Shown here one piece after another: positions 276 to 63,637 of a stretch of DNA of 64,000 nucleotides. The position numbers and the translations under genes are program-made. Source of the DNA: SAR202 cluster bacterium (lineage in GTDB: Bacteria; Chloroflexota; Dehalococcoidia; UBA6926; VFHL01); the NCBI GenBank assembly GCA_009392005.1, contig VFHL01000001.1, forward strand, positions 87,966-151,965, given 5' to 3'. The first letter of the stretch is position 1, and each line of letters opens with the position of its first letter. A model generated the notes under the pieces. It saw only the letters and a list, made by a program, of their open reading frames with translations. It did not search any database and had not been told where the DNA came from.

Positions 276-899
276 ATGGCTATCAATTCTTTACACGAAA
301 CTTATTTTAAAAAGCTTGAGAAAATGACCCGTGATTTTATGGACAGCCAAGCGGATGATTTGGAAAAATCGGTTGATCTATTGGTCGATGCATGGGAAAA
401 CGGCAAGTGCATTTATTCTTTTGGTAATGGTGGGTCTGCATCAACCGCGAGCCATCTTGCTTGCGATCTTGCGAAATTCACGATTATCCCAGGCAAGCCG
501 CGTTTGAAGGCTTTATGTCTTAACGATAATCCCTCGCTTGTCAGTGCTTGGACAAACGATTCTGGATTCGGCACAATTTTTGCAGAGCAATTAGAACCTT
601 GGATCGATGAAGGAGATGTTCTTATACCGATTTCAGTGCATGGGGGCTCTGGATCAGGCGATGCTGGCCCGTGGTCACAAAACCTGGCTCAGGCAGTTAA
701 TCTGGGCAAGGAACGAGGCGCTAAAACTATAGGCTTGTCAGGGTTTGATGGGGGATTTTTGGGCGAACAGGCAGATATCTGCCTCGTTGCGCCAATGGAT
801 GAAGAACCCTGGGGGACGCCACTGATTGAATCTTTTCATGTTGCGTTGCATCACTTGCTTTGCCTAGCGGTGAAGGAAAGGATTCAACATTCTGCTTAG
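276..899 (+). CDS. gmhA: SIS-domain sedoheptulose-7-phosphate isomerase (GmhA-like)
   Basis: 'SFGNGGSAS...HLACDL' and 'GDVLIPISVHGGSG', 'GAKTIGLSGFDGG' align by eye to the GmhA phosphoheptose isomerase. ATG at 276 sits 9 nt after a 'gaggga' RBS. Confidence 0.7.
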   Translation: MAINSLHETYFKKLEKMTRDFMDSQADDLEKSVDLLVDAWENGKCIYSFGNGGSASTASHLACDLAKFTIIPGKPRLKALCLNDNPSLVSAWTNDSGFGTIFAEQLEPWIDEGDVLIPISVHGGSGSGDAGPWSQNLAQAVNLGKERGAKTIGLSGFDGGFLGEQADICLVAPMDEEPWGTPLIESFHVALHHLLCLAVKERIQHSA

Positions 900-1001
900 C
901 AGATCTTGTTTGTTGATTGGTGTGAACGAGATGATCATATGCTATGGATTTGATTTGCGGGCGCCGAGCATTGTTACTTCAACGAAAGCGGCGAGTTTCG
1001 C

Positions 1002-2003
1002 ATGAAGGTGGGTATTATTGGAGCGGGACGGCAGGGATGGCGCCGAGCTCAAGCCATTGATGTATCCCGCGATGACATCACATTTGTATCAGATATTGAT
1101 GCTCAGGCTGCAGAAAATCTTGCTGTAGTTTATCGGGCGAACCACACAGTCAATTGGCAGGATGTGGTGCGTGATTCAAACGTTGATTCTGTCATTGTTT
1201 GCACTCCTCCCCTTTTTCACGCGGAAATTGTGACCTCTGCTCTTGAAAATGGCAAGCATGTTTTGTGTGAAAAGCCTCTAGCAAGAAATTTGAAAGAAGC
1301 ACAAGATATTTTTCATGCATCTGTGTCAAATGCGGTCAAATTGAAATGTGGTTTTAACTATCGTCATTTCCCTGCCATTAAACAAGCCAAACAGTGGTGT
1401 GACCAAGGCGTAATCGGTGACCTTCTATTGATGCGTTGCAGGCACGGCATCGGTGGGCGTCAAGATTACGATAGTGAATGGCGTGTGCAGAGCAGCGTCA
1501 GCGGTGGCGGAGAATTAATCGATCAGGGATCTCATGTTGTTGATCTATTCAGGTGGTTTATGGGTGAGTTTTCTGAGGTGTTTGGCATTACCGAAACCTC
1601 ATATTGGGATATTGAACCTGTAGAAGATAACGCGTTTGGGTTGCTTCGACAGCCCAACAACCGCATTTCCTCGTTCCATGTGAGTTGGACGCAGTGGAAA
1701 AATCTTTTCTCTCTTGAAATCATTGGGTCGAAAGGATCTATTTCAGTAGATGGAATAGGTGGGAGTTACGGTTCGCAGGAAGTGGTTTTGGCTGGAAGAA
1801 ATGATGCTGATTCAGATATGAATAAGCGCATCGAATTTCGTGGTGTTAGCGAAACATGGATCGCTGAATGGCAAGAATTTAGTGACGCTATTAAAGACAA
1901 TCGCGAGCCGATGGCGAATGCGAAGGATGGACTCGAGGCGGTGCGTTTGATTGATGCGCTTTATAGATCAAGTGAACTTGGTCAACCGATCACAATAAAC
2001 TAG
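1002..2003 (+). CDS. Gfo/Idh/MocA-family NAD(P)-dependent oxidoreductase (paralog 1)
   Basis: N-terminal Rossmann 'MKVGIIGAGRQG', 'CEKPLA', 'KCGFNYRH', 'GIGGR' family motifs. Confidence 0.75.
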   Translation: MKVGIIGAGRQGWRRAQAIDVSRDDITFVSDIDAQAAENLAVVYRANHTVNWQDVVRDSNVDSVIVCTPPLFHAEIVTSALENGKHVLCEKPLARNLKEAQDIFHASVSNAVKLKCGFNYRHFPAIKQAKQWCDQGVIGDLLLMRCRHGIGGRQDYDSEWRVQSSVSGGGELIDQGSHVVDLFRWFMGEFSEVFGITETSYWDIEPVEDNAFGLLRQPNNRISSFHVSWTQWKNLFSLEIIGSKGSISVDGIGGSYGSQEVVLAGRNDADSDMNKRIEFRGVSETWIAEWQEFSDAIKDNREPMANAKDGLEAVRLIDALYRSSELGQPITIN

Positions 2004-2021
2004 GATTTTTGGAGGACTATA

Positions 2022-3038
2022 ATGTTAAAGGTTGCGATGATTGGGGCCAATTTGCAGGGAAGACGGAGAGGTCCTGTGATCCAAGAACTTCCGGAGTCCG
2101 AATTGGTTTTAGTGACAGCCGGGCATCTTGAAAGGGCGCAGGTGCTCGCTGACGAGCTTCAATGCGAAGCTTCCACTGGATGGGATGAAGCGGTTCAAAG
2201 GGATGATATAGACGCTGTAGTGATTTGTACGCCCACGCATCTTCACCTCCCTGCTGCGCTTGCTGCGATTGAAAATGGGAAACATGTTCTGTGTGAGAAA
2301 CCACTTGGACTTGATGTTGAAGAAGCCGAAAAAATCGAACAGGCCGCGCGAGCTGCAGGAGTGATATTGAAATGCGGATTCAATCATCGTCATCATCCAG
2401 GACTGCAGCAGGCTCATCAATGGATAAAAGACGGGGAAATCGGTGAGGTGATGTTCGCCCGATGTCGATATGGCATTGGTGGTCGTCCGGGATATGAAAA
2501 TGAATGGCGAGCTGATCCCAAAATAGTTGGTGGCGGGCATTTACTTGAGCATGGTATTCATGCAATCGATTTGTTTCGATGGTTTGTTGGTGATCCCTCA
2601 CAAGTTTTTGGCTACACAAACACCTCTTTTTGGGATATGGAACCCTTGGAAGATAATGCGTTTGCACTTTTGAGGACGCAAACTGGCGTTGTTTTCTCAC
2701 TTCATTCGAGCCTGACGCAATGGACGAATCTTTTTTCGTACGAAATTTATGGTCACGAGGGATATATTCAAGTTGAAGGTCTTGGAGGCAGTTATGGTGT
2801 TGAGAAAGCCTCTTTAGGAAAGCGAGACTTTACAGCACCGTTTTCGGACCAAACAATTCAGTATCGTGGTGCCGACCGTTCGTGGTACGAGGAATGGCGA
2901 GAATTTGTTGCTGCGGTTCAGGAGAATCGCGAGCCGCTTGCTAATGGAGTTGACGGAGTGGAAGCATTACGTGTTGTTCACGCGATTTATGAATCTGCGC
3001 AAGATGGTAAGGTTGTGTTACTTTCGCAAGATCAATAA
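2022..3038 (+). CDS. Gfo/Idh/MocA-family NAD(P)-dependent oxidoreductase (paralog 2, tandem)
   Basis: Same motif set ('CEKPLG', 'KCGFNHRH', 'GIGGRPGYENEWR', 'DLFRWF') as the upstream gene, roughly 50% identical by eye. 18-nt spacer with RBS 'ggagga'. Confidence 0.75.
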   Translation: MLKVAMIGANLQGRRRGPVIQELPESELVLVTAGHLERAQVLADELQCEASTGWDEAVQRDDIDAVVICTPTHLHLPAALAAIENGKHVLCEKPLGLDVEEAEKIEQAARAAGVILKCGFNHRHHPGLQQAHQWIKDGEIGEVMFARCRYGIGGRPGYENEWRADPKIVGGGHLLEHGIHAIDLFRWFVGDPSQVFGYTNTSFWDMEPLEDNAFALLRTQTGVVFSLHSSLTQWTNLFSYEIYGHEGYIQVEGLGGSYGVEKASLGKRDFTAPFSDQTIQYRGADRSWYEEWREFVAAVQENREPLANGVDGVEALRVVHAIYESAQDGKVVLLSQDQ

Positions 3039-3061
3039 CAAGCTATAGGGTTTAGGACATT

Positions 3062-4210
3062 ATGAAGATCGCTATCATTTCAGATACTTTGTATCCCTTC
3101 GTTAAGGGGGGGGCAGATAAGCGTTATCATGAAATTGCGAAGTATTTAGTTGCTCAGGGGCATGAGGTCCATGTATTTACCTTGCGGTGGTGGGGTGATG
3201 AGAAATCAATCCTTCGTGACGGGATGAGATTTCATGGAGTGTGTGATCCTATGCCTTTATACGTTAAAGGCCGGCGATCGATTCGTGAGGCAATAGTTTT
3301 CGCGATGGCTCTGCCATGGAGTTTAATGCGGCATCGTTTTGATGTGATTGAATGCAATGTGAATCCTTTCTTGCATTGTTTCCCCATCAGGGTTATTTCG
3401 TGGATTTACCGTACCAAATTGGTGTTCGGTTTGTGGGAATGTTGGGGCAATTATTGGTTTGACTATCTCGGTGCCAGAGGGATCATGGGATGGCTTATGG
3501 AGCGCCTAGCGATAATGCTGCCAAATAAGATCATTGTGGAAAGTCAGTCGAACAAAGATATACTAGTATCATGGGGTGTGAATCCTAAAAAGATTTCACG
3601 GATTCCGAGTGGGGTTCATTTCAGCATGATACAAGATGTTCCCAAAGCGGATGGCAAGTTGGATCTTATTGTTGTGGGTCGAATGATTCGAGCAAAGGGA
3701 GCACATACGTTTCTTAACGCGTTGCCAAAAGTGATTGAACAAAATTCTTCTTTACGCGTAGGGATTGTAGGAGACGGACCGGAGATGGAAAATTTGAGGC
3801 AGATTAGCTCAAGTTTAGGATTAGATTCATATATAGAGTTTTATGGTTTTGTTCCCGAAGAAAAAGATGTTATTGCATTAATGAAGACAGCTAAAATTTT
3901 TGTTTACCCCGCTGCGATGGAAGGCGGATGGGCACTGACCGCTATAGAAGCAAACGCGAGTGGCCTCCCGACGATTGGTGTTGAAAAGGGAGATCTCGGA
4001 ATAACTGAGGCGGTCATTGAAGGGTTTAATGGAGTGTTAATTCCTGAAGAAAATGAGGATCTTTTAGCAGAGAAGATTAATGAAGTTCTTAAGGACGATA
4101 ATGCAAGGTCTAATATGAGTGCAAATGCTGTTGATTTTGCTCGTCAACATGACTGGCATGATCTTGCAAACCAAATAGAAAATGTATACGAAGAAGTGTA
4201 TGGGCGTTGA
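3062..4210 (+). CDS. GT4-family (group 1) glycosyltransferase
   Basis: C-terminal EX7E-type motif 'EGGWALTAIEANASGLPTIG...EAVIEGFNGVLIP'. N-terminal 'MKIAIISDTLYPFVKGGADK' typical of GT4. Confidence 0.75.
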   Translation: MKIAIISDTLYPFVKGGADKRYHEIAKYLVAQGHEVHVFTLRWWGDEKSILRDGMRFHGVCDPMPLYVKGRRSIREAIVFAMALPWSLMRHRFDVIECNVNPFLHCFPIRVISWIYRTKLVFGLWECWGNYWFDYLGARGIMGWLMERLAIMLPNKIIVESQSNKDILVSWGVNPKKISRIPSGVHFSMIQDVPKADGKLDLIVVGRMIRAKGAHTFLNALPKVIEQNSSLRVGIVGDGPEMENLRQISSSLGLDSYIEFYGFVPEEKDVIALMKTAKIFVYPAAMEGGWALTAIEANASGLPTIGVEKGDLGITEAVIEGFNGVLIPEENEDLLAEKINEVLKDDNARSNMSANAVDFARQHDWHDLANQIENVYEEVYGR

Positions 4211-4278
4211 TGCAATATTTATTGAGGGAAAGAAAATGTGTTTTGTGAAACATTTTTTTTCATTCAGGTGAGGAGCGT

Positions 4279-4968
4279 TTGGTGCCAAGTGTTACAGTCG
4301 TAATCCCTGCTCTTAATGAAGAGTTAGCAATTGAAGATACGATCCAGAAGATCCCCCGAGAGGATCTTGAAAGTTCGGGGTTTCCTACCGAAGTCCTTGT
4401 TGTAGACAATGGATCAACGGATAAGACGGCAGAATACGCGACGGATGCTGGTGCACGTGTAATTGCACAACCGAATCGTGGTTATGGTTGGGCATTGTGG
4501 ACAGGTTTTGTGAATGCCGAAGGCGATATTATTGTCACAATTGATGCAGATATGACATATCCAGCAGACATGATTCCAGACTTGGTAAACACGCTTGTTG
4601 AAAAAGATCTTGATTTCTTGACCACAAATCGCTTTGCACAAATGGAATCTGGCGCCATGAATTGGAGAAATCAATTTGGCAATCGGGTTCTTTCGCTAGC
4701 TGCACGTGTTTTGTTCCAGATTCCGTTTGTTGATTCACAATCTGGGATGTGGGTGTTTCGACGAGCAATCTTGGAGAAAATCAAATTAAGGTCACGTGGT
4801 ATGCCTTTGTCAGAGGAGATTAAGATTGAGGCTGCTTACTTCGCGAAATTGCGTTGCATCGAAGTACCAATTCCATACGCACGTCGCCAAGGACCAGTGA
4901 AGCTCCGTGCTTGGCGGGATGGGATGGAGAATTTACTATATCTGTTTTACAAGCGCGTGCGGCGGTGA
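4279..4968 (+). CDS. GT2-family glycosyltransferase (DPM1/polyprenyl-phosphate sugar transferase-like)
   Basis: 'VVIPALNEE', 'VVDNGSTDKT', 'DADMTYP' GT2 motifs. GTG start with GAGGAG RBS 8 nt upstream. Confidence 0.7.
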   Translation: MVPSVTVVIPALNEELAIEDTIQKIPREDLESSGFPTEVLVVDNGSTDKTAEYATDAGARVIAQPNRGYGWALWTGFVNAEGDIIVTIDADMTYPADMIPDLVNTLVEKDLDFLTTNRFAQMESGAMNWRNQFGNRVLSLAARVLFQIPFVDSQSGMWVFRRAILEKIKLRSRGMPLSEEIKIEAAYFAKLRCIEVPIPYARRQGPVKLRAWRDGMENLLYLFYKRVRR

Positions 4969-4981
4969 TGTTGGTTATCTG

Positions 4982-5917
4982 ATGAGATGTCTTATTACAG
5001 GTGCAACTGGATTCTTTGGATCCCACTTGACGTTGGTCTTGGCGCAAACGACGGATTGGACGTTGTATGGTACGAGCCACAAGAATCCGCAACGTCTTAC
5101 GATTCCTCAAGAACATATTCAACTGACTCAGTGCGATTTTCGCGATCAAACAGCGGTTGATGCTCTTGTTCAAAACATTCAGCCTGATTTAATTTTTCAT
5201 CTTGCCGCACAAAGTTTACCTGCTGATTCGTGGCGGAATCCTCGAGATACCCTCGACGCAAATGTTTTGGGTTCAATTAACTTATATGAAGCAGCAAAAA
5301 AACAGGAGAATTCTCCTCGAGTGGTCTTTGTTGGATCGAGCGCGGAGTATGGCTCTGGAACAAAAGAAGGTGCGTTACTTGTAGAGGATTCTCCGCTGGA
5401 ACCAGTTAATCCGTACGGTGTTAGTAAACTAGCAGCGGATTTGATGGCACAAAATTATTATGCGGCAGGCTTGTTAGATATCATTCGGGTACGCCCATTT
5501 CTCATTATTGGTGTTGGTAAAACAGGAGACGCCTGTTCTGATTTTTCACGCGGAGTTGTTGCGATCGAACGTGAACAGAGTAGTGCTCTTCGAGTTGGGA
5601 ATCTTAGTTCGGTGCGTGATTTTGTAGCGGTACAAGATGCTTCGAGGGCATTAATATTGATTGCCAATCATGGGGAATCGGGCGAGGTTTATAATTTGTG
5701 CTCAGGTATAGGGCATTCTATGCAAGAAGTTCTTGATCTAATCGTTTCAAATGCCGAACGTGAAATCATTATCGAACAAGATGCGAAACGTTTGCGGCCA
5801 ACAGATGAGTTGCAACTGGTGGGCGACTCAACGAAGTTGCAATCTTTAGGTTGGAAACCTGAGGTATCTTTAGAGACCGCCTTAGTAGAAATATTGGAGT
5901 ATTGGCGGCGTAACTAA
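4982..5917 (+). CDS. NAD-dependent epimerase/dehydratase (extended SDR; GDP-4-keto-6-deoxy sugar reductase Rmd-like)
   Basis: 'MRCLITGATGFFGSHL' Rossmann motif starts at ATG 4982. The longer track ORF from 4907 overlaps the GT2 gene and is rejected as the N-terminus. Confidence 0.7.
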   Translation: MRCLITGATGFFGSHLTLVLAQTTDWTLYGTSHKNPQRLTIPQEHIQLTQCDFRDQTAVDALVQNIQPDLIFHLAAQSLPADSWRNPRDTLDANVLGSINLYEAAKKQENSPRVVFVGSSAEYGSGTKEGALLVEDSPLEPVNPYGVSKLAADLMAQNYYAAGLLDIIRVRPFLIIGVGKTGDACSDFSRGVVAIEREQSSALRVGNLSSVRDFVAVQDASRALILIANHGESGEVYNLCSGIGHSMQEVLDLIVSNAEREIIIEQDAKRLRPTDELQLVGDSTKLQSLGWKPEVSLETALVEILEYWRRN

Positions 5918-5988: not shown

Positions 5989-6510
5989 TTGAAAGACCGG
6001 CCAATTCTGTACTCTGAGAAACAGCGGTTTCGCCAATGGTGGATTTGGGTACTTATTCTTCCAACCCCGATGGTTTGCCTTTGGGGGATGTTTCAGCAGA
6101 TTATCTTGGGTGTTCCATTTGGGAATGCTCCGGCGAATGATTTGTTTTTGATATTAATCGCGGTTGTATTTGGTTTGGGGTTGCCTCTATTTATATATAA
6201 GGCCGGGCTCGATACTGAAGTGACGGATCGTGAAGTGAGGATTCGCTTCAGACCGATTCATAGGGATTGGGTGAGGTATGATTTTGATCAAATCGAAAAT
6301 GTCGAGGTTCATATTTATAACCCCATTCGGGACTATGGTGGATGGGGAATTCGTTATGGGAGATTGGGTAAGGCATACAATGTGAGTGGGAACGCAGGAG
6401 TTCTTGTAACATTGAAAAATGGGACTCGAGTTTTGATTGGCTCTGGATTACACGAAATTCTAAGCGGCATAATTTTTGATCAGATGCAACGGTGTTCAAA
6501 CAATACTTAG
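5989..6510 (+). CDS. membrane protein with two N-terminal TM helices and a bacterial PH-like (YdbS/DUF304-type) domain
   Basis: Two hydrophobic helices followed by a beta-rich 'VTDREVRIRFRP...GTRVLIGSG' segment. TTG start is uncertain; an alternative ATG lies downstream. Confidence 0.4.
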   Translation: MKDRPILYSEKQRFRQWWIWVLILPTPMVCLWGMFQQIILGVPFGNAPANDLFLILIAVVFGLGLPLFIYKAGLDTEVTDREVRIRFRPIHRDWVRYDFDQIENVEVHIYNPIRDYGGWGIRYGRLGKAYNVSGNAGVLVTLKNGTRVLIGSGLHEILSGIIFDQMQRCSNNT

Positions 6511-6547: not shown

Positions 6548-8230
6548 TCAGTTTTGAATATCCTCGCTAAGTTCTTCCGCTTGTTTCAAATCGTTTGCAT
6601 CAGGCCTAAATTGCGCATATAAGATCTTTTCAGTGATGCTTGTAAGTTCAGTGAATGCCGTGTTAGTGGTGGGTCCAACTAAGCCTACGAGGTCTCGTAA
6701 CGTTTGGTATGGATTAAGATCAAGGTTGAATTTTCTTGCCAAGTTATTCACAACAGCCAGGTAAATTAGGACAATCTGTTTCCCGTAGTTTGAAATCTTT
6801 CCGTCAGTTGATTCGCTAGCAAGATTAGTAGTCTCATTTGTTCTTATTGTATTTCCTTGAGATACGCTGAATTCGGGTTCATTCTTAGCGGTTGCTAAAA
6901 GTGTTGTTCGTCGGCGTGCGGATTTGAGTACCAGCATTGTGATTAGATATAAAACAAGCACAACAACGAAAGCTATACTGGTTGCATTGACGGCCAGCAA
7001 GGATATTGTAGTCTGTTTTGCTTGGTTCCACGGTTCTTCTGGTTCGACCAAAACAGATAGTTTATGTGACCCCAAGATCATCGCTCCTATCGGCAAATTC
7101 AGGGATCCTTGGAATCTACCGTTTGAGTCGCTCACTACTTCTGTTGCGTGACTCCCTCGTTCAACCCGAACGACTGCATTTTGGAGTGGCCCGAACGTAG
7201 TTTCAACATGGCCTGTAAAATCAAGGTTCCATGGTATTAAACTGAACTGTTTTGCGGAAAGTGACACTTTGGGAGTCAAATGGTGAACTTGCGTTAAACC
7301 AGACTTTTGCACTCGCTCAAATACCTGTTGTTTTTGAACCTCTAGAGTTATTTCGTGTGTGCCACGGCCTGCATATTCAGGCACCATGACAGTTAATTCA
7401 AAATTCCGTTTCGCGGGATATACCCCTAAGACAGTTTTGTCAAAAATCAGACCAACCAAAAACGTAGTTTCATCCGGTTTGTTTGGTGAATGAACGGGTT
7501 CTGTATATCCGATGGGGAAAATGGTTCCTGAAATGGTCATCGGACGGCCTGGGTAGATCACTTCTGGCGCATCAAATTGTAACGATACCGGATATGTTCC
7601 GATCCAACTAAGTGTCTGTCTGCGTTCATCATTGGGATTCAATACGACCTCGGTGAGAGTGTTGCTATCGTTTTTGAATCGCACCCATACGCTATTGATT
7701 TTATTCACAAGAGATGAAAGCTTTTCGTAGGCATCAGATATGGGCGTATCTATTGCATCAGCCACGATTCCAAATCGGTCCCCAAGGTTTTCTGTGGCAG
7801 TATCAAGGTCTGCCATAATGAGCTTTGCTTGTACGAGGGATTTATCTGCTAGTTTCAAGTTCTCTAGCGCGGCGAGATCTTGGCCCATTGCGATGAATTC
7901 TTCTGCCTTAGCTAATGAATAGTCCGAATTATTTAGGCGGTCTCCTAGCGTGGCGAGGAGATCAGTGTATCGGCCCAACATGAAGCGATATTCTGAAGGT
8001 ATGTTTGCGGTGCCTAACTGCGAAATGTGTGTTTGGAATTCTGAGTATTTCGCGTCTTCTAATATTTCCAATCCGACGCCAATGTATGTGAATAGGGCAA
8101 CCTGATTTAGTTCTGATTGTGCGACACTTGGATCCACATGAGGAGGAGGCGATTGTGCATGTACATTGGGAATGAACAAGATCTTTAAAGTAAATGCGAT
8201 AAAGAAAGAGCTGAGGATGATTTTTTTCAC
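6548..8230 (-). CDS. cell-surface protein of unknown function (signal peptide, large ectodomain, single TM, roughly 130-aa cytoplasmic tail)
   Basis: N-terminal 'MKKIILSSFFIAFTLKILFIPNVHAQ' signal peptide. Internal TM 'IAFVVVLVLYLITMLVL' followed by 'KSARRR'. GTG start overlaps the stop of the upstream gene (TAGTG). Confidence 0.5.
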   Translation of the reverse strand: MKKIILSSFFIAFTLKILFIPNVHAQSPPPHVDPSVAQSELNQVALFTYIGVGLEILEDAKYSEFQTHISQLGTANIPSEYRFMLGRYTDLLATLGDRLNNSDYSLAKAEEFIAMGQDLAALENLKLADKSLVQAKLIMADLDTATENLGDRFGIVADAIDTPISDAYEKLSSLVNKINSVWVRFKNDSNTLTEVVLNPNDERRQTLSWIGTYPVSLQFDAPEVIYPGRPMTISGTIFPIGYTEPVHSPNKPDETTFLVGLIFDKTVLGVYPAKRNFELTVMVPEYAGRGTHEITLEVQKQQVFERVQKSGLTQVHHLTPKVSLSAKQFSLIPWNLDFTGHVETTFGPLQNAVVRVERGSHATEVVSDSNGRFQGSLNLPIGAMILGSHKLSVLVEPEEPWNQAKQTTISLLAVNATSIAFVVVLVLYLITMLVLKSARRRTTLLATAKNEPEFSVSQGNTIRTNETTNLASESTDGKISNYGKQIVLIYLAVVNNLARKFNLDLNPYQTLRDLVGLVGPTTNTAFTELTSITEKILYAQFRPDANDLKQAEELSEDIQN

Positions 8231-8496
8231 TAGATTGTTTCCGGTTGCAAAAGAATCCCAATACTATTTACAGCAAGGAGAGCCAAGAATCCAACAAAAA
8301 ATACTGCGCTAACTGAATTTAGGGCTCTTCGAGAGCTTGGCTGCAAGTTGGTAAAAAGGATCGTAATAATCATATATTCGCCGATCAAGATTGAAAGATA
8401 TAGATCTAACTTGGTTTGGTTGAAGAAAGTTAGTACAACTATGGTGGCCATGAACACGGAGGTTAGAGATATTATGTATTGGTCGTATGTTTTCAT
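8230..8496 (-). CDS. small integral membrane protein (3 predicted TM helices)
   Basis: 88 aa, three hydrophobic segments. ATG immediately follows the stop of the upstream gene (TAAATG), so translationally coupled. Confidence 0.5.
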   Translation of the reverse strand: MKTYDQYIISLTSVFMATIVVLTFFNQTKLDLYLSILIGEYMIITILFTNLQPSSRRALNSVSAVFFVGFLALLAVNSIGILLQPETI

Positions 8497-9258
8497 TTAA
8501 GCATCTTTTGTTTGAAGTGTGATTTTGTGTCCCTTGCCCTGAACTTCTTCTCTGTCAATTGAAATAGGCTGATTTAGTGCTTGTGCCGTAATTGTTGCGG
8601 TAATTGATGCCATAGGGCTGCCGAGTATGCTGTGGGAAAATTCGTCACCTCTGGATAAAGTGGAATTCTTGATCATTATTTGTATGAATGATCCATCCCT
8701 TTGCACGTCGACCGCTGTTGCAAGGTCAAAGGTTCCAACAATAATTGATGACAGCGCTGTTGCTAGTTCTGTTGATAGGTAGTTTTCAATTTTGTCGATC
8801 TCGAGAAGCGCAGCGCCTGGCGCTGCAAGCAAAATCCCGATATCTTCAGGGTTTTTCCCGAACTGAACGATCAAGCGTTGTTCGAGATGCTCTGGAAGAG
8901 TTGAATCGAACGCATCATTTTGAATCGGAATTAATGTTCTTAATGGCCCATCTGTGACCGATCTTGGCAGATACATTGCCTTGGAAGTGACGCTAAGCTC
9001 TTCTACGATCGCATTGATGGTATCGAAACTTGATTCAATGAGCAGTAAGCTTGCATCAAAAGGTACTTTCTTCAGTGTATGGTTTAGTGCCAGGGAGACA
9101 ATACCAATAATCATGCATGCCAATCCCAATACGATGAATGGCACATAATTTGTCATGAGCCACGCAAAGAGTGCGAATGTAAAACCAGCAGTTACTAAAC
9201 CGCTTCCAAGTAGCAAGTAGCGATTGTTTTGCCATGTGATCATATTTTTCATAATCAT
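8497..9258 (-). CDS. membrane protein, two N-terminal TM helices plus a roughly 180-aa soluble domain; unknown function
   Basis: Hydrophobic segments 'LLLGSGLVTAGFTFALFAWL' and 'FIVLGLACMIIGIVSLAL'. No recognised catalytic motifs. Confidence 0.5.
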   Translation of the reverse strand: MIMKNMITWQNNRYLLLGSGLVTAGFTFALFAWLMTNYVPFIVLGLACMIIGIVSLALNHTLKKVPFDASLLLIESSFDTINAIVEELSVTSKAMYLPRSVTDGPLRTLIPIQNDAFDSTLPEHLEQRLIVQFGKNPEDIGILLAAPGAALLEIDKIENYLSTELATALSSIIVGTFDLATAVDVQRDGSFIQIMIKNSTLSRGDEFSHSILGSPMASITATITAQALNQPISIDREEVQGKGHKITLQTKDA

Positions 9259-9313: not shown

Positions 9314-9853
9314 TTAGGGTTTTTCCTGTGAACAAGATCTACTTCTCGTGAGGAAGAAGAAAATCAATATCAATATTCCGCCCAATTCAAGGGATAAGTA
9401 CCACCATGAAGCTTCGAAGTAAGCATTGGTTAAATCCGTTATTCTTGTTGTTATTTGATCAGGAATATCTAAACTTTTTGCTTTAAAATCAACACCTAGA
9501 ATTTGAAGATCTGCTCCGAAAATGGGCCATGACGCACGTTTCATCCAACTCAAAGGACTTTCCATTGGAGTGTCTAGTATGACGTGTAGAATTGGCGCTA
9601 GGCCATATATCCACCAATGACGACTTATTGTTGTGAGTGCAATGCATATTATTACACCGAACAATATTGTATGAGCGAATAGGCGTCCGCTTTCTGCAAA
9701 GGGTAATACGAAGACGAAAAGCATGCGATCCACTATGTCGGGTAGCAGAGACATAACAGCGACGGTCAACTGATTTATGGGTTTATTCGGGATGACTTTT
9801 TGGACTTGTGAAGTGATTCCAAGCGTGTAACCGATATGGCTCATCACGAGCAT
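9314..9853 (-). CDS. membrane-bound metal-dependent hydrolase (YdjM/DUF457-like)
   Basis: Multi-TM protein with scattered conserved His/Asp ('MSHIGYT', 'LLPDIVD', 'FAHT', 'HVILD'), as in DUF457 proteins. Confidence 0.45.
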   Translation of the reverse strand: MLVMSHIGYTLGITSQVQKVIPNKPINQLTVAVMSLLPDIVDRMLFVFVLPFAESGRLFAHTILFGVIICIALTTISRHWWIYGLAPILHVILDTPMESPLSWMKRASWPIFGADLQILGVDFKAKSLDIPDQITTRITDLTNAYFEASWWYLSLELGGILILIFFFLTRSRSCSQEKP

Positions 9854-9890: not shown

Positions 9891-10730
9891 TTAGTTGTCC
9901 TCTTGCATGTTCTTTGAGACTTCGATTAGGAATTTTTCGCTCGTCGTAAATCCTGCCGCGGTTGGATGGCCCCCTCCGCCAAATAATTTAGCTACAGAAC
10001 TGATGTCGAAGTCACCGCGAGATCGAAGGCTCCAGTGAACCTTGGATTTTGATACATAAAATATTGCTGCAAAGGGAGCATCTGGATAGTGGTCAAGTAG
10101 ACTGTGCCCAATTTCGCTACCGTGTAAGGCTGAATTGACGACTGGAATATTGTGGTCAGCAAGAGTTATTATCTCGGCTCGTTCCACAAGATTCATGACT
10201 TGTTGGTCGATTGATCGTAGAATTGGATCACCTTCGTTGGCTAGTTGACTTGTTTCCAAGGTGTTCCAAACTGAAAAATCACGCGGGTGTGATCGCAAAC
10301 CAGCCATGACTTGTTTGGTGCGTGGAAGCCGAAATTTCCAAAGATCGCTGTCTTGAATATGCTGGATTAGTAGTGGAACGGCCGTATTTGGATGGAAATA
10401 TTCCCAAGCAAGCATAGCGCCTGACTTTTCCATATCGAATACTGCTGAAATAGGATTTGATTCAAGATTCTTGAAATCATCTTTGGCAGTTTTATGGTGA
10501 TCAAGTATTGTAATTGAGTTTGCGTGACGAGCAAGCTTGTGAAGCGTTTCGTTGGGCAAACTGATGTCAATCAATACAATCTCATCATTAGAAGTTATTT
10601 TGTTTGCGTCAAACATGGGATCATCGTGGCTAATGGCGGTGTATTGGGCGCGATCACCAAATTGTAACCAAGCGGCCCAAGCTCCGCCGAACCCGTCATC
10701 GCAGTTCTTGTGATAGTAGATTAAATTCAT
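9891..10730 (-). CDS. DHH/DHHA1-family phosphoesterase (NrnA-like nanoRNase/pAp phosphatase type)
   Basis: 'YYHKNCDDGFGGAWAAW' (motif I/II), 'ILDHH' (DHH motif), C-terminal 'GGGGHPTAAGF' (DHHA1 GGGH motif). Confidence 0.7.
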   Translation of the reverse strand: MNLIYYHKNCDDGFGGAWAAWLQFGDRAQYTAISHDDPMFDANKITSNDEIVLIDISLPNETLHKLARHANSITILDHHKTAKDDFKNLESNPISAVFDMEKSGAMLAWEYFHPNTAVPLLIQHIQDSDLWKFRLPRTKQVMAGLRSHPRDFSVWNTLETSQLANEGDPILRSIDQQVMNLVERAEIITLADHNIPVVNSALHGSEIGHSLLDHYPDAPFAAIFYVSKSKVHWSLRSRGDFDISSVAKLFGGGGHPTAAGFTTSEKFLIEVSKNMQEDN

Positions 10731-10906: not shown

Positions 10907-11170
10907 TTAGCCGCCAGCTATGGACGGTATGAAGTGGATTTCACTGTCATCTTTAACCGGTTGTAACATGCCTAAATGAGTGTCTTCACCATCAACTATC
11001 ACTGCGAGGCCGGGCATAATCTCATCGTTGTATGCGAGATGGTTTTTTAGTCCAGGGAATGCTTTGTCAAGATTGTTTATGATCTGGCCAATTGTGTCGC
11101 CTGCGATTTCTACTTGGCGTTTTTGACCTGTGAAAAACTGCATTTGTGTTGGAATCCATACGTCAGCCAT
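10907..11170 (-). CDS. MoaD/ThiS-family sulfur-carrier protein, CysO-like (C-terminal Gly-Gly)
   Basis: 87 aa ending '...IHFIPSIAGG'. 'IPT...FTGQKRQVEIAGDTIGQII' resembles the CysO/QbsE-type carrier ('IPTILRPHTGGQKSV..GDTLGAVI...ILPAVAGG'). Confidence 0.65.
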   Translation of the reverse strand: MADVWIPTQMQFFTGQKRQVEIAGDTIGQIINNLDKAFPGLKNHLAYNDEIMPGLAVIVDGEDTHLGMLQPVKDDSEIHFIPSIAGG

Positions 11171-11320
11171 CAGTAGTTCCTTATTTGCTTACAAGAACGA
11201 TGTGGTTTCACTCATTTCTTTGCCCAATAATGTTGCTTGTACTGTGGTTTTGATAGTGTGATGAACCATTCTTCTCAACATAGGGTGCCTAATATATGTT
11301 CCAAGATGAATCGGCAATGC

Positions 11321-13624
11321 TTATTGGTTTGAGAGTGATTTGGATACTGTTTCTGGGGACATCGGCAGGTCTGTCACTCTTGTGCCAACTGCATCATTTA
11401 TTGCGTTGGCGATGGCTGCCATTGGGGGAACTAACGGTAGCTCAGCAACACCTCTCAGCCCGTATGGATGTCCTGGATTAGGAACCTCTACGATGACGGT
11501 GTCTATTTGTGGCACGTCAAGACTCGTTGGCATTCGGTAATCTAAAAATGTGGAGTTCAGCATTTCGCCGTCTTTATTGAAATAGTATCCTTCGTTGAGT
11601 GCCCACCCTATTCCTTGGACGGCTGCACCTTGCATTTGCCCTTCAACATAGCTTGGATGGATTGCTTTCCCGGCGTCTTGTACGGAAGTGTAACGAAGTA
11701 TCGTGACTTTTCCTGTTTCTGGATCGACCTCGACATCAACAATATGAACTGCGAAGGCGGGGCCATTTCTGCGTTCTGCGGTCGTCGCTCTTCCAACAAT
11801 GGGTCCACCAGTTGTATTGAGTCGCTCTGCCAGTTCCTTGAAGGTCATTTTTAGTTCTGTGTCAGATTTGTGCTGTAAGGTCCCATCGTTATATTCGACG
11901 TCACTGGGTGTGATCGCCCATATCTTCGCAGCACGTTCAATCATTTGCCGTTTTATATCTTGTGCAGCTTCATATGTAGCTATTCCTGTTTTGTATGTTG
12001 CGCCACTTCCAGCGGTGTTGGATGTGAACCCAATTGAATCGGTGTCACCTACCGTTGGATTGATTTCCTCTGCACTTATACCAAGGGCCTCTGCTGCTTG
12101 CATCGCCATTGCTACACGGGAGCCACCAATATCTGGAGACCCTTCAACAAGGCTAACAGTTCCATCAGCGTTTACGCTGGCAGTAGCACTTGACGGCCCG
12201 CCCCCATTACCCCAGTAGCCAGCAGCAACACCACGTCCCTGGTATGGTCCTGTTAGTTTCGTTCCATAGTGGTTATGCTCTTTGGCAGCATTCAGGGTAT
12301 CCATAAAACCGATAGGACCAAACGTTGGTCCTGTTACTTGCCGCGTTCCTTCTTGGGCTCCGTTCAATATGCGGAATTCAATCGGATCCATTCCCAGTCT
12401 TTCGCAAATCTCATCAATTACTTGTTCTGCTCCAAATGCTGCGAACGGTGCGCCTGGAGCACGATAGGCTGCAACTTTGGGTGTGTTAACTACGACGTCA
12501 TAACCTTCAATATAGGCGTTCGCAATGTTGTATGGACCAAGGACGCAGCGGGCGCCACCTCCAACGGGGGAACCCGGGAAAGCACCTGCTTCATATATTA
12601 ATTTGATGTTGGCTGCAATCAGTTTTCCTTCTTTGGTGGCGCCAATTTTTACTTTTGACGTACCACCAGAAGTTGGTCCCGACCCGATGAAAACCTCTTT
12701 ACGGCTCATAGCGATTTTAACTGGAACACCGGCCTTACGTGATAATGCGGCTGTAACGGGTTCCAAGTACACTATGTTTTTTCCACCAAAACCGCCGCCA
12801 ATTTCCATGGGAACAACTTTAATTTTAGAAACAGGGATATCCAAAATTTTTGCTGTCTGTTCACGGATTGCAAAATGACCCTGGCTACTACACCAAATAG
12901 TCAGATTGCCTTGAATATCCCAAGAGGCAGCAGCAGCATGTGGCTCAATATATCCTTGGTGGACTGGGAGAGTACTGAAGTCTCGCTCAATGATAATGTC
13001 TGCATCTGCAAAACCAGCGTCAATGTCTCCAGCTTTGATTTCGAAATGTTTTCCTACATTGCTTCCGGGTTCGTTTTCCCCTGTGCCCCCTGGCCCTGCC
13101 ATTTGTGTGGTCGTTATGAGATTTTCGTGTAGTAATGGAGCATCTTTTTCCATCGCATCTTTAGCGTTTGTAACGGGTGTCAGAATTTCGTATTCGACCT
13201 CAATTAAGGCAAGCGCTTCTTCAGCAACATGAGGGTTAATAGCGGCGATTGCTGCTATTGCATGCCCAACGTAGAGAGCTTTCTTGTGTGCTAAGCAATT
13301 TGCGCTTAGAAATCCAATGTTGCGGATTTCCCCCTCGCCAATATCTGCGACAGCATCTGAAGGCTGTCCCAAATCTTCTGATGTAACAACTGCCTTTACG
13401 CCAGGTACCGCAAGAGCCTTTTCGTAATTGATCGACTTGATTAGCGCATGAGCGTAGGGGCTACGGAGTAATTTGCCGTGTAAAAGACCAGGCAAATTGA
13501 TGTCGTTTCCATAACGTGCGCGTCCTGTGACCTTGTCGAGCCCATCATGACGTATAGGGCGCGTCCCCACTACGTTGTAGTTGGTGTTTGATAGGACAAC
13601 ATTCGGATCGTATGTTTCTACCAT
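11321..13624 (-). CDS. xanthine dehydrogenase/aldehyde oxidase-family molybdopterin-binding large subunit (CoxL/XdhB-like)
   Basis: 767 aa. N-terminal 'GTRPIRHDGLDKVTGRARYGNDINLPGLLHGKLLRSPYAHA' and 'AAYRAPGAP' Mo-hydroxylase motifs. No adjacent Fe-S or FAD subunit genes. Confidence 0.8.
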   Translation of the reverse strand: MVETYDPNVVLSNTNYNVVGTRPIRHDGLDKVTGRARYGNDINLPGLLHGKLLRSPYAHALIKSINYEKALAVPGVKAVVTSEDLGQPSDAVADIGEGEIRNIGFLSANCLAHKKALYVGHAIAAIAAINPHVAEEALALIEVEYEILTPVTNAKDAMEKDAPLLHENLITTTQMAGPGGTGENEPGSNVGKHFEIKAGDIDAGFADADIIIERDFSTLPVHQGYIEPHAAAASWDIQGNLTIWCSSQGHFAIREQTAKILDIPVSKIKVVPMEIGGGFGGKNIVYLEPVTAALSRKAGVPVKIAMSRKEVFIGSGPTSGGTSKVKIGATKEGKLIAANIKLIYEAGAFPGSPVGGGARCVLGPYNIANAYIEGYDVVVNTPKVAAYRAPGAPFAAFGAEQVIDEICERLGMDPIEFRILNGAQEGTRQVTGPTFGPIGFMDTLNAAKEHNHYGTKLTGPYQGRGVAAGYWGNGGGPSSATASVNADGTVSLVEGSPDIGGSRVAMAMQAAEALGISAEEINPTVGDTDSIGFTSNTAGSGATYKTGIATYEAAQDIKRQMIERAAKIWAITPSDVEYNDGTLQHKSDTELKMTFKELAERLNTTGGPIVGRATTAERRNGPAFAVHIVDVEVDPETGKVTILRYTSVQDAGKAIHPSYVEGQMQGAAVQGIGWALNEGYYFNKDGEMLNSTFLDYRMPTSLDVPQIDTVIVEVPNPGHPYGLRGVAELPLVPPMAAIANAINDAVGTRVTDLPMSPETVSKSLSNQ

Positions 13625-58644: not shown

Positions 58645-59619
58645 ATGGGTCCCGAAGAAGCGAAGCAACTAGCAGATAACATAATCGACAATGTATCAAC
58701 TGTCATAATAGGCAAGCGTCACGTTGTTCAGCACGCTCTCATATCGGCCGTGTGTGGTGGGCATATTCTGATTGATGATGTTCCTGGTGTTGGCAAGACG
58801 GTTCTTGCTAAAAGCCTTTCAATATCTTTTGGATGTTCATTTAAACGTGTGCAATTTACACCTGATTTGTTGCCGAGTGATGTATTAGGCGTCTCTATTT
58901 ATGACCAGGAGAGTCGTGACTTTACTTTTCGGCCTGGTCCAGTAATGTCCCAAGTATTGCTCGCAGATGAAGTGAATCGCGGGACCCCTAAAACACAGTC
59001 AGCGTTGTTGGAAGCGATGGAAGAAAATCAGATTACAGTAGATGGTGTTACTCATTTTCTTCCCAAGCCCTTTATAGTACTTGCGACGCAGAACCCTCTG
59101 GAACATGAAGGTACTTTTCCACTTCCTGAAGCTCAGCGAGATCGCTTCTTCATGCGTGTGCATTTGGGGTATCCCACGAAAGACGAAGAAAAAGAGATCA
59201 TGGAACAGCAACAAGAGGTGCATCCAATTGAAAGTTTGCAACCATTAACCACGCCTGACCAATTAATTTCTTTGCAGCAGACGGTCCGTGGCATATATGT
59301 TGATGATTTGGTGAAACAATATATTGTGGATATTGTTGACGCTACTCGCAAATTGGATGATGTTTATGTGGGTGTGTCACCGCGGGGTTCATTGGCGTTG
59401 TTTCGAGGTTCACAGGCACGCGCATTGCTGGATGGACGTGATTATGTGTCCCCTGATGATGTAAAAGGATTGGTGCAGCCAGTTTTGCAGCATCGGATTA
59501 TCTTGTCGTCGGCGACACGATTGCAAGATACTACTGCAGAATCTGTTCTTGGTCATGTTCTGGACTCGATTCCGGTACCTGGCACGTCTAGTCGTGGGTG
59601 GTTTCGAGCTGAATCGTGA
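58645..59619 (+). CDS. MoxR-family AAA+ ATPase
   Basis: 'VPGVGKT' Walker A, 'LLADEVNR' Walker B, 'VLATQNPLE...GTFPLPEAQRDRF' MoxR signature. Confidence 0.85.
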   Translation: MGPEEAKQLADNIIDNVSTVIIGKRHVVQHALISAVCGGHILIDDVPGVGKTVLAKSLSISFGCSFKRVQFTPDLLPSDVLGVSIYDQESRDFTFRPGPVMSQVLLADEVNRGTPKTQSALLEAMEENQITVDGVTHFLPKPFIVLATQNPLEHEGTFPLPEAQRDRFFMRVHLGYPTKDEEKEIMEQQQEVHPIESLQPLTTPDQLISLQQTVRGIYVDDLVKQYIVDIVDATRKLDDVYVGVSPRGSLALFRGSQARALLDGRDYVSPDDVKGLVQPVLQHRIILSSATRLQDTTAESVLGHVLDSIPVPGTSSRGWFRAES

Positions 59620-60827
59620 AAACAAAACGTTTTGTGTTTGGTGTCTTGCTCTTCGCGATGTTTTTGACAATTGGTTCAGGATTCTACGCGACCGCACGTC
59701 TTGCGGGCATTTTAATTGCAGTATTAGCCCTGTCATTTTTGTGGGCTCGTGTTAACGTTCGCTGGCTTGATATTCGAATTGAACGTACATTAAACGATGT
59801 TCAGGTAAATGATGATATCGAAGAAAAGGTGATCGTTCGCAACCTCAGCCTTTTACCTCTTCCTTGGTTATTTGTTGATGATCTTGGCAACCTTCCTAGG
59901 CACGGCCTAAGCAGGGTTTTTGGTATCGGTGGGTGGTCTTCATTGTCTTGGAATTCCACCACACGAGTTTCGCAGCGGGGTGTATTCACTCTTGGGCCTG
60001 TAGAAGTTATGACTAGCGACCCTTTGGGGTTATTTCAGGCTACTAGGATCTATGGGGATGCCCAAGAGATTCTCGTATATCCAGAGACTTTATTTTTAGC
60101 GGGATTTCAAATTCCAACCGAAGGACACGTCGGAGATTCTTCAGATCTTCGCTCGACCCGCGGATTAACCTCAAATGTACGGTCAGTTCGCAAATATGAA
60201 ATAGGGGACGGGTTGAACAGTGTTCATTGGAAAAGCACGGCTCGGTACAATCAACTGATGGTTAAAGAATTTGAGATAGAACGCCATGGAGGGGTTTGGA
60301 TTATTCTTGACATGAATCGAAACACTCAGGAAGGTGAGGGAGCAGAAAGTACAGAAGAATATGGAATTAAGGTAGCGGCTTCAGTAGCACATACGTTGTT
60401 GGAGCAGGGACAAGATGTAGGATTAGCATTGACAGGAGATACGCAACATTTTCTACATCCATCCAATTCTTCAAGTCATCGATTAGAGGTGCTTGAGACG
60501 TTGGCTCGTGTAAGGGCTGACGGACAAATGTCGGTGCAAGAAGTTTTTTTTCATATCGAGAGATTCCTTGGTCCATCGTCTGCAGTTGTCGTCATTAGTC
60601 CATCAGGGGAAGATCTACAAATAACCGCATCTAATCTGATTGGCCGTAATATTCCAGGATCTCTCGTTATATTAGATTCGGAGAGCTTTTCTGGTCGCGT
60701 AAGTGGGTCGGATTTTGCAAATAATATATTAGCTGCCGGGATGTTTGCCTACCATATTCGTTGCGGTGATGACCTACAATCGACATTGCGATTGAATACT
60801 AGTTTGATTGCCACTGGAAGAAGATGA
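59616..60827 (+). CDS. DUF58-domain protein (VWA-like, MoxR partner)
   Basis: Overlaps the moxR stop by 4 nt. N-terminal TM helices, 'DYREYQPGD'-like region 'VRKYEIGDGLNSVHWKSTAR'. Confidence 0.7.
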   Translation: MKTKRFVFGVLLFAMFLTIGSGFYATARLAGILIAVLALSFLWARVNVRWLDIRIERTLNDVQVNDDIEEKVIVRNLSLLPLPWLFVDDLGNLPRHGLSRVFGIGGWSSLSWNSTTRVSQRGVFTLGPVEVMTSDPLGLFQATRIYGDAQEILVYPETLFLAGFQIPTEGHVGDSSDLRSTRGLTSNVRSVRKYEIGDGLNSVHWKSTARYNQLMVKEFEIERHGGVWIILDMNRNTQEGEGAESTEEYGIKVAASVAHTLLEQGQDVGLALTGDTQHFLHPSNSSSHRLEVLETLARVRADGQMSVQEVFFHIERFLGPSSAVVVISPSGEDLQITASNLIGRNIPGSLVILDSESFSGRVSGSDFANNILAAGMFAYHIRCGDDLQSTLRLNTSLIATGRR

Positions 60828-60852
60828 GCGTTATGTCTAAGCGAATTGATGC

Positions 60853-63138: not shown

Positions 63139-63637
63139 AAAAACCATCGTTTTCAAAACGGACTCTGGATGGGTTGGCGTTGTATCTAGCGACGTTGGCG
63201 TCAAATCGCTGTATTTACCTCGAGCATCTCGCTATGAGGTCGAGACTGAGATTCAAACGCGTCATGGGGTATTACATTCTGATGCCAAGGGAAACCAAGA
63301 TTTAAAACACCGGTTGATACAGTATTTTACTGGCGAAGCCGTTGAATTTAATGATCCTGTTGATCTAACTGACAGATCTGAGTTTTTCAGATTAGTGTGG
63401 GGTGCAGTCAAATCTATTCCCCGTGGGGAACTTCGTACATACAAAGAGATTGCCGAATTAATTTGTAAACCGCGTTCGGCAAGAGCTGTGGGACGTGCAT
63501 TAAATGCGAATCCTGTTCCAATTATAGTTCCATGTCACCGTGTTGTTGGTTCAAATGGTTCCTTAACGGGATTCGCTAGTGGGATCGATTTGAAGAAAAA
63601 AATGCTATGTTTTGAGGGACACCGATTTCACCAATAA
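63122..63637 (+). CDS. ogt: methylated-DNA--protein-cysteine methyltransferase
   Basis: 'IIVPCHRVVGSNGSLTGFASG' is the canonical PCHRV active site. Confidence 0.85.
   Translation: MVLNPEKTIVFKTDSGWVGVVSSDVGVKSLYLPRASRYEVETEIQTRHGVLHSDAKGNQDLKHRLIQYFTGEAVEFNDPVDLTDRSEFFRLVWGAVKSIPRGELRTYKEIAELICKPRSARAVGRALNANPVPIIVPCHRVVGSNGSLTGFASGIDLKKKMLCFEGHRFHQ

Follow-up and report, generated by a model that had tools for sequence, protein, structure and literature searches.

Introduction

In the MoxR-vWA pairs RavA-ViaA, CbbQ-CbbO and NorQ-NorD, an ATPase and a vWA adaptor act together to remodel a partner complex. MoxR-DUF58 modules are among the most widespread prokaryotic AAA+ systems, and their targets are mostly unknown. 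The DUF4129 domain, as its Pfam description has it, is typical of transglutaminase C-termini. Comparative genomics of archaea has grouped DUF4350 (arCOG01314), MoxR, vWA, DUF1616, immunoglobulin-like (Ig-like) surface proteins and proteins with 2-3 transmembrane (TM) helices into a complex with a putative role in secretion or membrane remodelling (Makarova, Galperin and Koonin 2015, PMC5898192), a prediction for which we found no experimental follow-up in the literature. In the mycobacterial cluster Rv3691-Rv3695, the DUF4350, MoxR and DUF58 genes (Rv3691, Rv3692 and Rv3693) bear consecutive numbers, and they are co-regulated in M. chelonae (PMC8191103). Here we analyse a 64,000-nt stretch of a SAR202 cluster bacterium (contig VFHL01000001.1, positions 87,966 to 151,965; hereafter the window), in which three joined minus-strand genes, A, B and C, occupy 6548..9258. 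On balance, we favour the reading that the products of A, B and C are made together and form a single membrane complex, namely the membrane and surface part of a six-gene envelope system that is conserved in relatives.

Results

The triplet and its junctions

The three genes of the triplet lie head to tail on the minus strand of the window, and their boundaries were taken from the list of open reading frames. Gene A (8497..9258) encodes a protein of 253 amino acids (aa) of the DUF7982 family, gene B (8230..8496) an 88-aa protein of the DUF8044 family, and gene C (6548..8230), which starts with GTG, a 560-aa surface protein with a DUF4129 tail. An earlier note, made from the letters of the window, had placed three reading frames at exactly these coordinates, and had described their junctions as head-to-tail. 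Both junctions are read directly in the sequence. Specifically, the stop codon of A abuts the start codon of B in TAAATG (8494..8499, minus strand; the sequence reads GCT TAA ATG AAA), leaving a gap of 0 nt, while the stop codon of B shares one nucleotide with the GTG start of C in TAGTG (8228..8232, minus strand; the sequence reads ATC TAG TG AAA), an overlap of 1 nt. Some gene callers begin B at an internal ATG, which yields a product of 73 aa; the 88-aa start is preferred, because residues 2-7 of the longer product (KTYDQY) align with the N-terminal motif of the family, R-I-Y-N-R-Y.

Identical copies are present in TARA and other marine assemblies. Comparison with relatives at 71-75% identity gives ratios of nonsynonymous to synonymous substitution (dN/dS) of 0.15 for A, 0.12 for B and 0.14-0.21 for C, at a synonymous divergence (dS) of ~0.9-1.3. 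A, B and C are under purifying selection in this SAR202 clade, which lacks linked ATPase genes.

A six-gene operon in Dehalococcoidia and archaea

Two independent metagenome contigs with distant A homologues (23-28% identity) carry, in this order, two DUF1616 genes, A, a gene for a small TM protein, a gene for a 615- or 643-aa protein and DUF4350; in the longer contig, L005, the same order continues into MoxR (AAA_3) and DUF58. The large protein of these contigs is a C homologue, and phmmer and profile matches tie A, B and C of the window to the genes that occupy the corresponding positions in L005, L006 and over 80 further loci.

The distribution of the family was surveyed with a degenerate DNA motif derived from A residues 212-237, with fixed spacing, which was scanned over 185,579 species-representative genomes. 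The scan returned at least 119 loci, of which 115 encode true A homologues; all locus counts below rest on these at least 119 loci, that is, they hold among the matches listed. The hosts are almost all Dehalococcoidia or other Chloroflexota, or else Thermoproteota archaea, and the archaeal hosts comprise Bathyarchaeia, Methanomethylicia, Caldivirga, Vulcanisaeta and Nitrososphaerota, plus one Methanocella. The usual gene order, on one strand, is A-B-C-DUF4350-MoxR-DUF58. Each neighbouring gene was counted with an iterative profile of its own, over those listed loci with enough same-strand DNA downstream of A. By this measure B lies downstream of A in 101/106 listed loci, C in 82/93, DUF4350 in 63/70, MoxR in 47/56 and DUF58 in 35/41, and some of the genes that seem to be missing fall where the stored sequence is masked by short runs of N.

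The junctions within the triplet are conserved along with the order. A and B overlap by exactly 4 nt in 65/106 listed loci. For B and C the overlap is 4 nt in 39/90, with 8 further loci showing 1 nt. Among ~107 B sequences the leading aligned residue is L in 66, V in 19 and M in 16, and we read the B family as mostly using TTG starts, which would give a TTGA overlap with the TGA stop of A. The conserved overlapping junctions provide the strongest support here for coupled, stoichiometric production of the three proteins. The earlier note had described the triplet as an envelope module, translationally coupled and without a known function, and this description holds, given the conserved tight junctions, synteny in more than 80 relatives and the lack of a characterised family for any of the three proteins. 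Neither of the two outcomes that the note had named as counting against its description was found: the proteins fall into no well-characterised family, and the triplet is syntenic in relatives.

Departures from the usual order fall into several kinds. In L039 and L089, two metagenome-assembled genomes (MAGs) of Dehalococcoidales, no C gene is present and B runs straight on into DUF4350 and MoxR, and in L089 also into DUF58; C is thus dispensable in some lineages. In L026 and L123, which are single-cell genomes of marine Dehalococcoidia, A-B-C-DUF4350 is followed by unrelated genes for Usp, TrkA and prephenate dehydratase. DUF4350 is inverted and lies upstream of A in L030 and L065, as does MoxR in L030. 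Two DUF1616 paralogues and a gene for a 142-aa secreted protein precede A (5') in 32 listed loci, mostly archaeal. Separately, in a Nitrososphaerales MAG, A-B is directly preceded (5') by a gene (L050:4749-6992, minus strand) for a 748-aa protein that carries an exosortase/archaeosortase (EpsH) domain; a C homologue was not detected at this locus. The EpsH neighbour is a single-locus hint of a link between the module and surface-protein sorting.

In a rough neighbour-joining tree of A, which is distance-based and midpoint-rooted, the bacterial sequences fall into what is essentially a single clade inside the archaeal part of the tree, and A of the window forms, together with L011, a long branch near the bacterial/archaeal boundary. 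The tree is suggestive only of a single transfer of A from archaea to Dehalococcoidia.

Families of A, B and C

All three proteins belong to catalogued families. A is assigned to PF25939 (DUF7982) by a precomputed match for an identical 253-aa protein, and relatives P0005-P0007 carry the same match. B is assigned to PF26161 (DUF8044) by a precomputed match at E<=1e-5 for the 88-aa product (L004), the match for the 73-aa call being listed as weak. Both labels come from precomputed annotations; the Pfam copy that we scanned holds neither model, so that a blank in our scans leaves recent DUFs possible. Residues 489-554 of C (6569..6766, minus strand) match DUF4129 (PF13559) with an E-value of 4.9e-7 and 30.2 bits, against a gathering cut-off of 24.8. 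The earlier note had loosely compared the tail of C with DUF4129-type domains of membrane proteins associated with MoxR and transglutaminases. The tail proves to be a real Pfam match above threshold, and the association is borne out by the DUF4350-MoxR-DUF58 genes directly 3' of the triplet in relatives. The note had also recognised no motif in the three proteins; this has to be qualified, since they carry catalogued DUF signatures (PF25939, PF26161 and PF13559), none of which is a characterised family.

An exhaustive HMMER search of 1.84 billion representative proteins with the A profile returned 261 clusters, nearly all of ~240-260 aa and matched over their full length, and by these matches DUF7982 is a small family of uniform architecture. 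Word-index homologue searches returned 3-4 close relatives each for A and for C, and 10 proteins when the 88-sequence A profile was used, the best 8000 candidates by common words being scored. Outside their own clade, no homologue exceeds 41% identity to A of the window or 28% to C, so that both are divergent members of their families. C of the window is moreover ~100 aa shorter in its N-terminal region than the C family. By Pfam, DUF4129 is present in 56/70 C-family members and CarboxypepD_reg in 28/70, together with assorted Ig-like domains.

Further scans of the three proteins gave blanks. An NCBIfam scan of A, B and C returned nothing useful, and PDB sequence searches with A and C returned no match. 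Transglut_core and TgpA_N have no Pfam match in C at E<=1, and the Pfam and NCBIfam scans of A, B and C gave no kinase, cyclase, DNA-binding or other output domain. The PADLOC defence models gave no match at E<=0.001 to A, B, C or the MoxR and DUF58 proteins of the window, and an anti-phage defence system, including MoxR-vWA conflict systems, was rejected on this ground.

Predicted topology and domains

The AlphaFold2 (AF2) model of A, built on an 88-sequence alignment, is confident, with a predicted local distance difference test score (pLDDT) of 91. It comprises helices at residues 9-35 and 39-61, a long helix at residues 67-88 and then an alpha/beta domain. Residues 14-61 (9076..9219, minus strand) form a membrane helical hairpin with an outer loop of 3-4 residues, as judged from the AF2 helices and from lysine and arginine (K/R) counts, and residues 62-253 (8500..9075, minus strand) a soluble domain. 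Mean K/R counts in the A family are 1.3 before TM1, 0.1 in the loop and 1.4 after TM2, a distribution that places the N-terminus and the soluble domain, by prediction, in the cytoplasm. The near-invariant residues of the family are A94, Y96, P98, G148, G213, S218 and E237. Foldseek resemblances of the soluble domain are to V4R (2oso), YslB (3njc), the TRAPP subunit Bet3 (3cue, 7yh2), H-NOX (3nvr) and BcsD, all of them weak (E >0.01), with BcsD an equally good structural match; V4R (PF02830) has no sequence match in the 88 A-family members. We regard a V4R/Bet3-like fold of this domain as a lead rather than a result. A also differs from the V4R, Bet3, YslB and BcsD folds in being anchored to the membrane by an N-terminal hairpin, over which none of the matched structures aligned.

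B has three hydrophobic segments. Its second loop is rich in K/R (family mean 2.6), and on this account B is predicted to have its N-terminus inside and its C-terminus outside. The B family keeps polar or charged residues within its membrane helices, namely D31, E40, K77 and E80; in B of the window, N77 and G80 replace the common K77/E80 pair.

The secondary structure of the low-confidence C model agrees with the Pfam matches of the C family. Taken together, C reads as a signal peptide, a helical bundle at residues ~34-188, two beta-sandwiches at ~206-300 and ~321-411, a TM helix, a K/R-rich linker and a helical DUF4129 domain. The single TM helix corresponds to the hydrophobic stretch AVNATSIAFVVVLVLYLITMLVL at residues 412-434 (6929..6997, minus strand) and is followed by a tail of ~125 aa. 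The tail is assigned to the cytoplasm because of the K/R bias across the helix, the C-family means being 1.1 before it vs 5.4 just after it. C is predicted to place ~385 aa outside the cell, where a helical bundle would sit on two Ig-like domains, and to keep DUF4129 inside. The alignment of 70 C-family sequences shows no variation at T510, E534 and Y538.

The AF2 helices, the hydrophobic segments and the K/R bias thus agree with the topology in the earlier note, which gave A two TM helices, B three, and C a signal peptide, one TM helix and a tail. In combination, A, B and C supply six membrane helices and, besides these, a single large domain outside the cell and two domains in the cytoplasm. 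A transporter was considered and rejected, since all three proteins together have only these six membrane helices and match no transporter family.

The SAR202 layout and neighbouring genes

Downstream, C converges on a plus-strand gene for a 173-aa DUF6141 membrane protein (5989-6510) across a gap of 37 nt. The convergent arrangement is kept in relatives L126 and L130 (71-75% identity), in which the A/B and B/C overlaps are 4 nt, and DUF6141 is found only at the loci of this clade among the matches listed. The layout of the triplet and its tight junctions are kept in relatives at 71-85% identity. The reduced A-B-C layout is not an accident of one genome.

On the other side of the triplet lie two further minus-strand genes. 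The first encodes a 179-aa YdjM-like membrane protein (9314..9853; Pfam YdjM E 4.5e-6, 26.7 bits, just below the cut-off of 29), and the second a 279-aa DHH/DHHA1 phosphoesterase (9891..10730; Pfam DHHA1 2.1e-8). The gaps of 55 nt between the YdjM-like gene and A and of 37 nt between the DHH and YdjM-like genes, as given in the earlier note, are correct from the coordinates of the reading frames. The linkage that the note drew between these genes and the triplet is conserved in part: L127, a relative at 72% identity, has DHHA1, YdjM-like, A and B in the order of the window, and L011, the nearest outgroup (41% identity), has a YdjM-like gene directly 5' of A, but the linkage is absent from the rest of the family. 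Among the matches listed, ~117 loci, a same-strand YdjM gene adjoins A only in this clade and L011, and a DHH gene adjoins A only in this clade. Promoter and terminator scans gave site counts equal to those of shuffled sequence. A single DHH-YdjM-A-B-C transcript is plausible from the gene arrangement.

The only MoxR-DUF58 pair of the window (324 and 403 aa; AAA_3 8.6e-62, DUF58 3.7e-21) lies at 58645..60827 on the plus strand, ~50 kb from the triplet and opposite to it in direction. It is followed on the plus strand by a gene for a 761-aa TgpA-like transglutaminase (60853-63138; Transglut_core 6e-28, with TgpA_N also matched), whose C-terminal 190 aa carry a sub-threshold DUF4129 match (E 0.015). 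The pair was rejected by position as the cognate partner of the triplet, being part of a TgpA operon (58645-63138). The end of the TgpA-like gene is overlapped by an O6-methylguanine methyltransferase-like gene (63122-63637). DUF4350 has no match within the 64-kb window even at E<=10.

Other neighbours were noted in passing. Upstream (5') of the DHH gene, at 10907-13624 on the minus strand, lie genes for an 87-aa MoaD/ThiS/SAMP-like protein and a 767-aa subunit of the molybdopterin xanthine-dehydrogenase family, and a MoaD-like gene is also found upstream in L127. Beside the triplet, the plus-strand region 276-5917 encodes GFO/IDH/MocA oxidoreductases, GT4 and GT2 glycosyltransferases and epimerases. 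In L005, a very distant locus, epimerase and RmlD-type genes follow DUF58 (L005:8754-11314). The module may be tied to surface glycans, a suggestion that comes from two loci only.

Discussion

A proposed mechanism and the evidence against it

We propose that the DUF4129 domain of C and the DUF7982 domain of A would together provide a cytoplasmic platform for a MoxR hexamer and for DUF58 as a membrane-anchored vWA adaptor. The action of MoxR-DUF58 would then lead to assembly or to a conformational change of the external part of the complex, along with the external, flavodoxin-like DUF4350 protein, and the likely role of the system would be the construction or remodelling of a cell-surface or envelope structure. 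That MoxR-DUF58 remodels a partner is put forward here by analogy with RavA-ViaA, CbbQ-CbbO and NorQ-NorD. The idea of DUF4129 as a recurring cytoplasmic tail of membrane proteins linked to MoxR-DUF58 fits the weak DUF4129 match in the TgpA-like protein of the window. In SAR202, A-B-C might work alone as a surface-anchored complex, or might work with a MoxR-DUF58 pair supplied in trans, for example from the TgpA operon 50 kb off.

Several points weigh against this proposal. DUF4350, MoxR and DUF58 do not adjoin it in the window; of the features of the six-gene operon, the window has A, B and C as orthologues of the membrane and surface genes, and has neither an adjacent DUF4350 gene nor MoxR and DUF58 genes in the same operon. 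C is missing from L039 and L089, so that C is not obligatory and DUF4129 is not the sole docking site. The AF2 model of C is poor (pLDDT 49, with four close sequences as input). Furthermore, we found in the literature no experiment on any of the components and no demonstrated physical interaction between them.

A bolder form of the proposal would have the six-gene system be an archaeal-type machine for surface assembly or remodelling, passed once from Thermoproteota-like archaea to Dehalococcoidia, with A-B-C of SAR202 as a free-standing unit that either has no motor or borrows the MoxR-DUF58 pair of the TgpA operon. We consider it unlikely in this full form. If true, it would give DUF4129 the general role of an adaptor between MoxR-DUF58 motors and unrelated surface proteins in both bacteria and archaea.

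Alternative explanations

The absence of linked ATPase genes in the SAR202 clade could also mean that the triplet is an autonomous surface complex that needs no AAA+ ATPase, such as an adhesin or an envelope or S-layer tether or spacer, with A and B as membrane chaperone or anchor subunits. At least three relatives at species level retain the A-B-C-only layout under purifying selection, L026 and L123 keep A-B-C-DUF4350 and then continue into unrelated genes, and a cluster of glycosyltransferase and sugar-epimerase genes lies beside the triplet in the window, all of which speak for such a complex. However, C keeps T510, E534 and Y538 and A keeps its near-invariant cytoplasmic residues, which argues that an interaction with a cytoplasmic partner has been retained, and a DUF4350-MoxR-DUF58 set may lie elsewhere in the genome, of which the window covers 64 kb. 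We give this explanation a minor share of our belief. The same loss of the ATPase half might instead have left a decaying, non-functional remnant, as the missing DUF4350, MoxR and DUF58 genes 3' of C and the missing K77/E80 pair of B could suggest. This is clearly disfavoured, to the point of being very improbable: the three reading frames are intact, relatives at 71-85% identity still have the layout with its tight junctions, and dN/dS values of 0.12-0.21 at a dS of ~0.9-1.3 led us to reject a pseudogene remnant.

Two further readings, both of which we hold to be improbable, give the triplet a different function. V4R and H-NOX domains are ligand-binding sensor modules, and the similarity of the soluble domain of A to V4R, YslB, Bet3 and H-NOX could point to a transmembrane sensor, in which this domain would bind a small hydrophobic ligand or lipid while the ectodomain of C senses the outside, the output passing through MoxR-DUF58 in other organisms. 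The fold match is weak, though, and is unaccompanied by a V4R sequence match in the 88 family members; A, B and C contain no output domain, and BcsD, the equally good structural match, is a scaffold. The other reading takes DHH-YdjM-A-B-C as a five-gene operon whose products act jointly, for instance as a hydrolase of nucleotides or phosphoesters linked to upkeep of the envelope; the DHH and YdjM linkage would then be central to what the triplet does in SAR202. The same-strand gaps of only 37 and 55 nt, the DHH-YdjM-A-B order in the 72%-identity relative and the YdjM-like gene directly 5' of A in L011 are consistent with it. Yet DHH is linked to A in this clade only, and YdjM to A only here and in L011 out of the ~117 loci among the matches listed; the junctions do not overlap, unlike those between A and B and between B and C, and the promoter and terminator scans stayed at the level of shuffled sequence.

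Uses of the comparative set

The ~115 loci, drawn from two domains of life and carrying the same genes in the same order, make up a clean comparative set. They include natural 'deletion variants', namely A-B-C in SAR202, A-B-C-DUF4350 in some marine Dehalococcoidia and operons without C in some Dehalococcoidales, which define sub-complexes and point to DUF4129 and DUF7982 as a putative contact surface on the cytoplasmic side. Cultured archaea (Vulcanisaeta distributa and Caldivirga sp.) are among the hosts of the family, as is a Methanocella MAG, and in these the 2015 prediction could be tested. For SAR202, an abundant deep-ocean lineage, the triplet marks a conserved surface protein complex.

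Comparison with known systems

Of the described systems, the archaeal arCOG01314 neighbourhood has the gene content seen around relatives of the triplet, which likewise adjoin DUF4350, MoxR, vWA/DUF58 and DUF1616, together with an Ig-like surface protein and small membrane proteins of 2-3 TM helices. The triplet of the window differs in having no DUF4350, MoxR, DUF58 or DUF1616 gene next to it, and its host is a bacterium. The MoxR-DUF58-TgpA operon, known from Pseudomonas aeruginosa TgpA (PMC3507681) and present as a copy at 58645-63138 in the window, resembles C in the plan of its membrane protein, with an extracytoplasmic domain, a TM segment and a C-terminal tail of the DUF4129 type. C, however, lacks the transglutaminase core and the multi-TM TgpA_N domain; its ectodomain would consist of a helical bundle and Ig-like domains, and its partners are DUF7982 and DUF8044 and, in relatives, also DUF4350. 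The mycobacterial Rv3691-Rv3695 cluster has the same DUF4350, MoxR and DUF58 genes as the six-gene operon, whereas its membrane partners are SpoIIM-like and RDD proteins, neither DUF7982 nor DUF8044 being listed among them.

The triplet is thus not a new kind of system: its families are catalogued DUFs, and its neighbourhood was described by the comparative genomics of 2015. What is added here is that A, B and C recur consistently in a six-gene operon, where they are translationally coupled; that this operon extends beyond archaea and is very common in Dehalococcoidia; that DUF7982 has a confident structural model; and that SAR202 carries a conserved variant, in which the linked DUF4350-MoxR-DUF58 half has been lost and linkage to DHH and YdjM genes has been gained.

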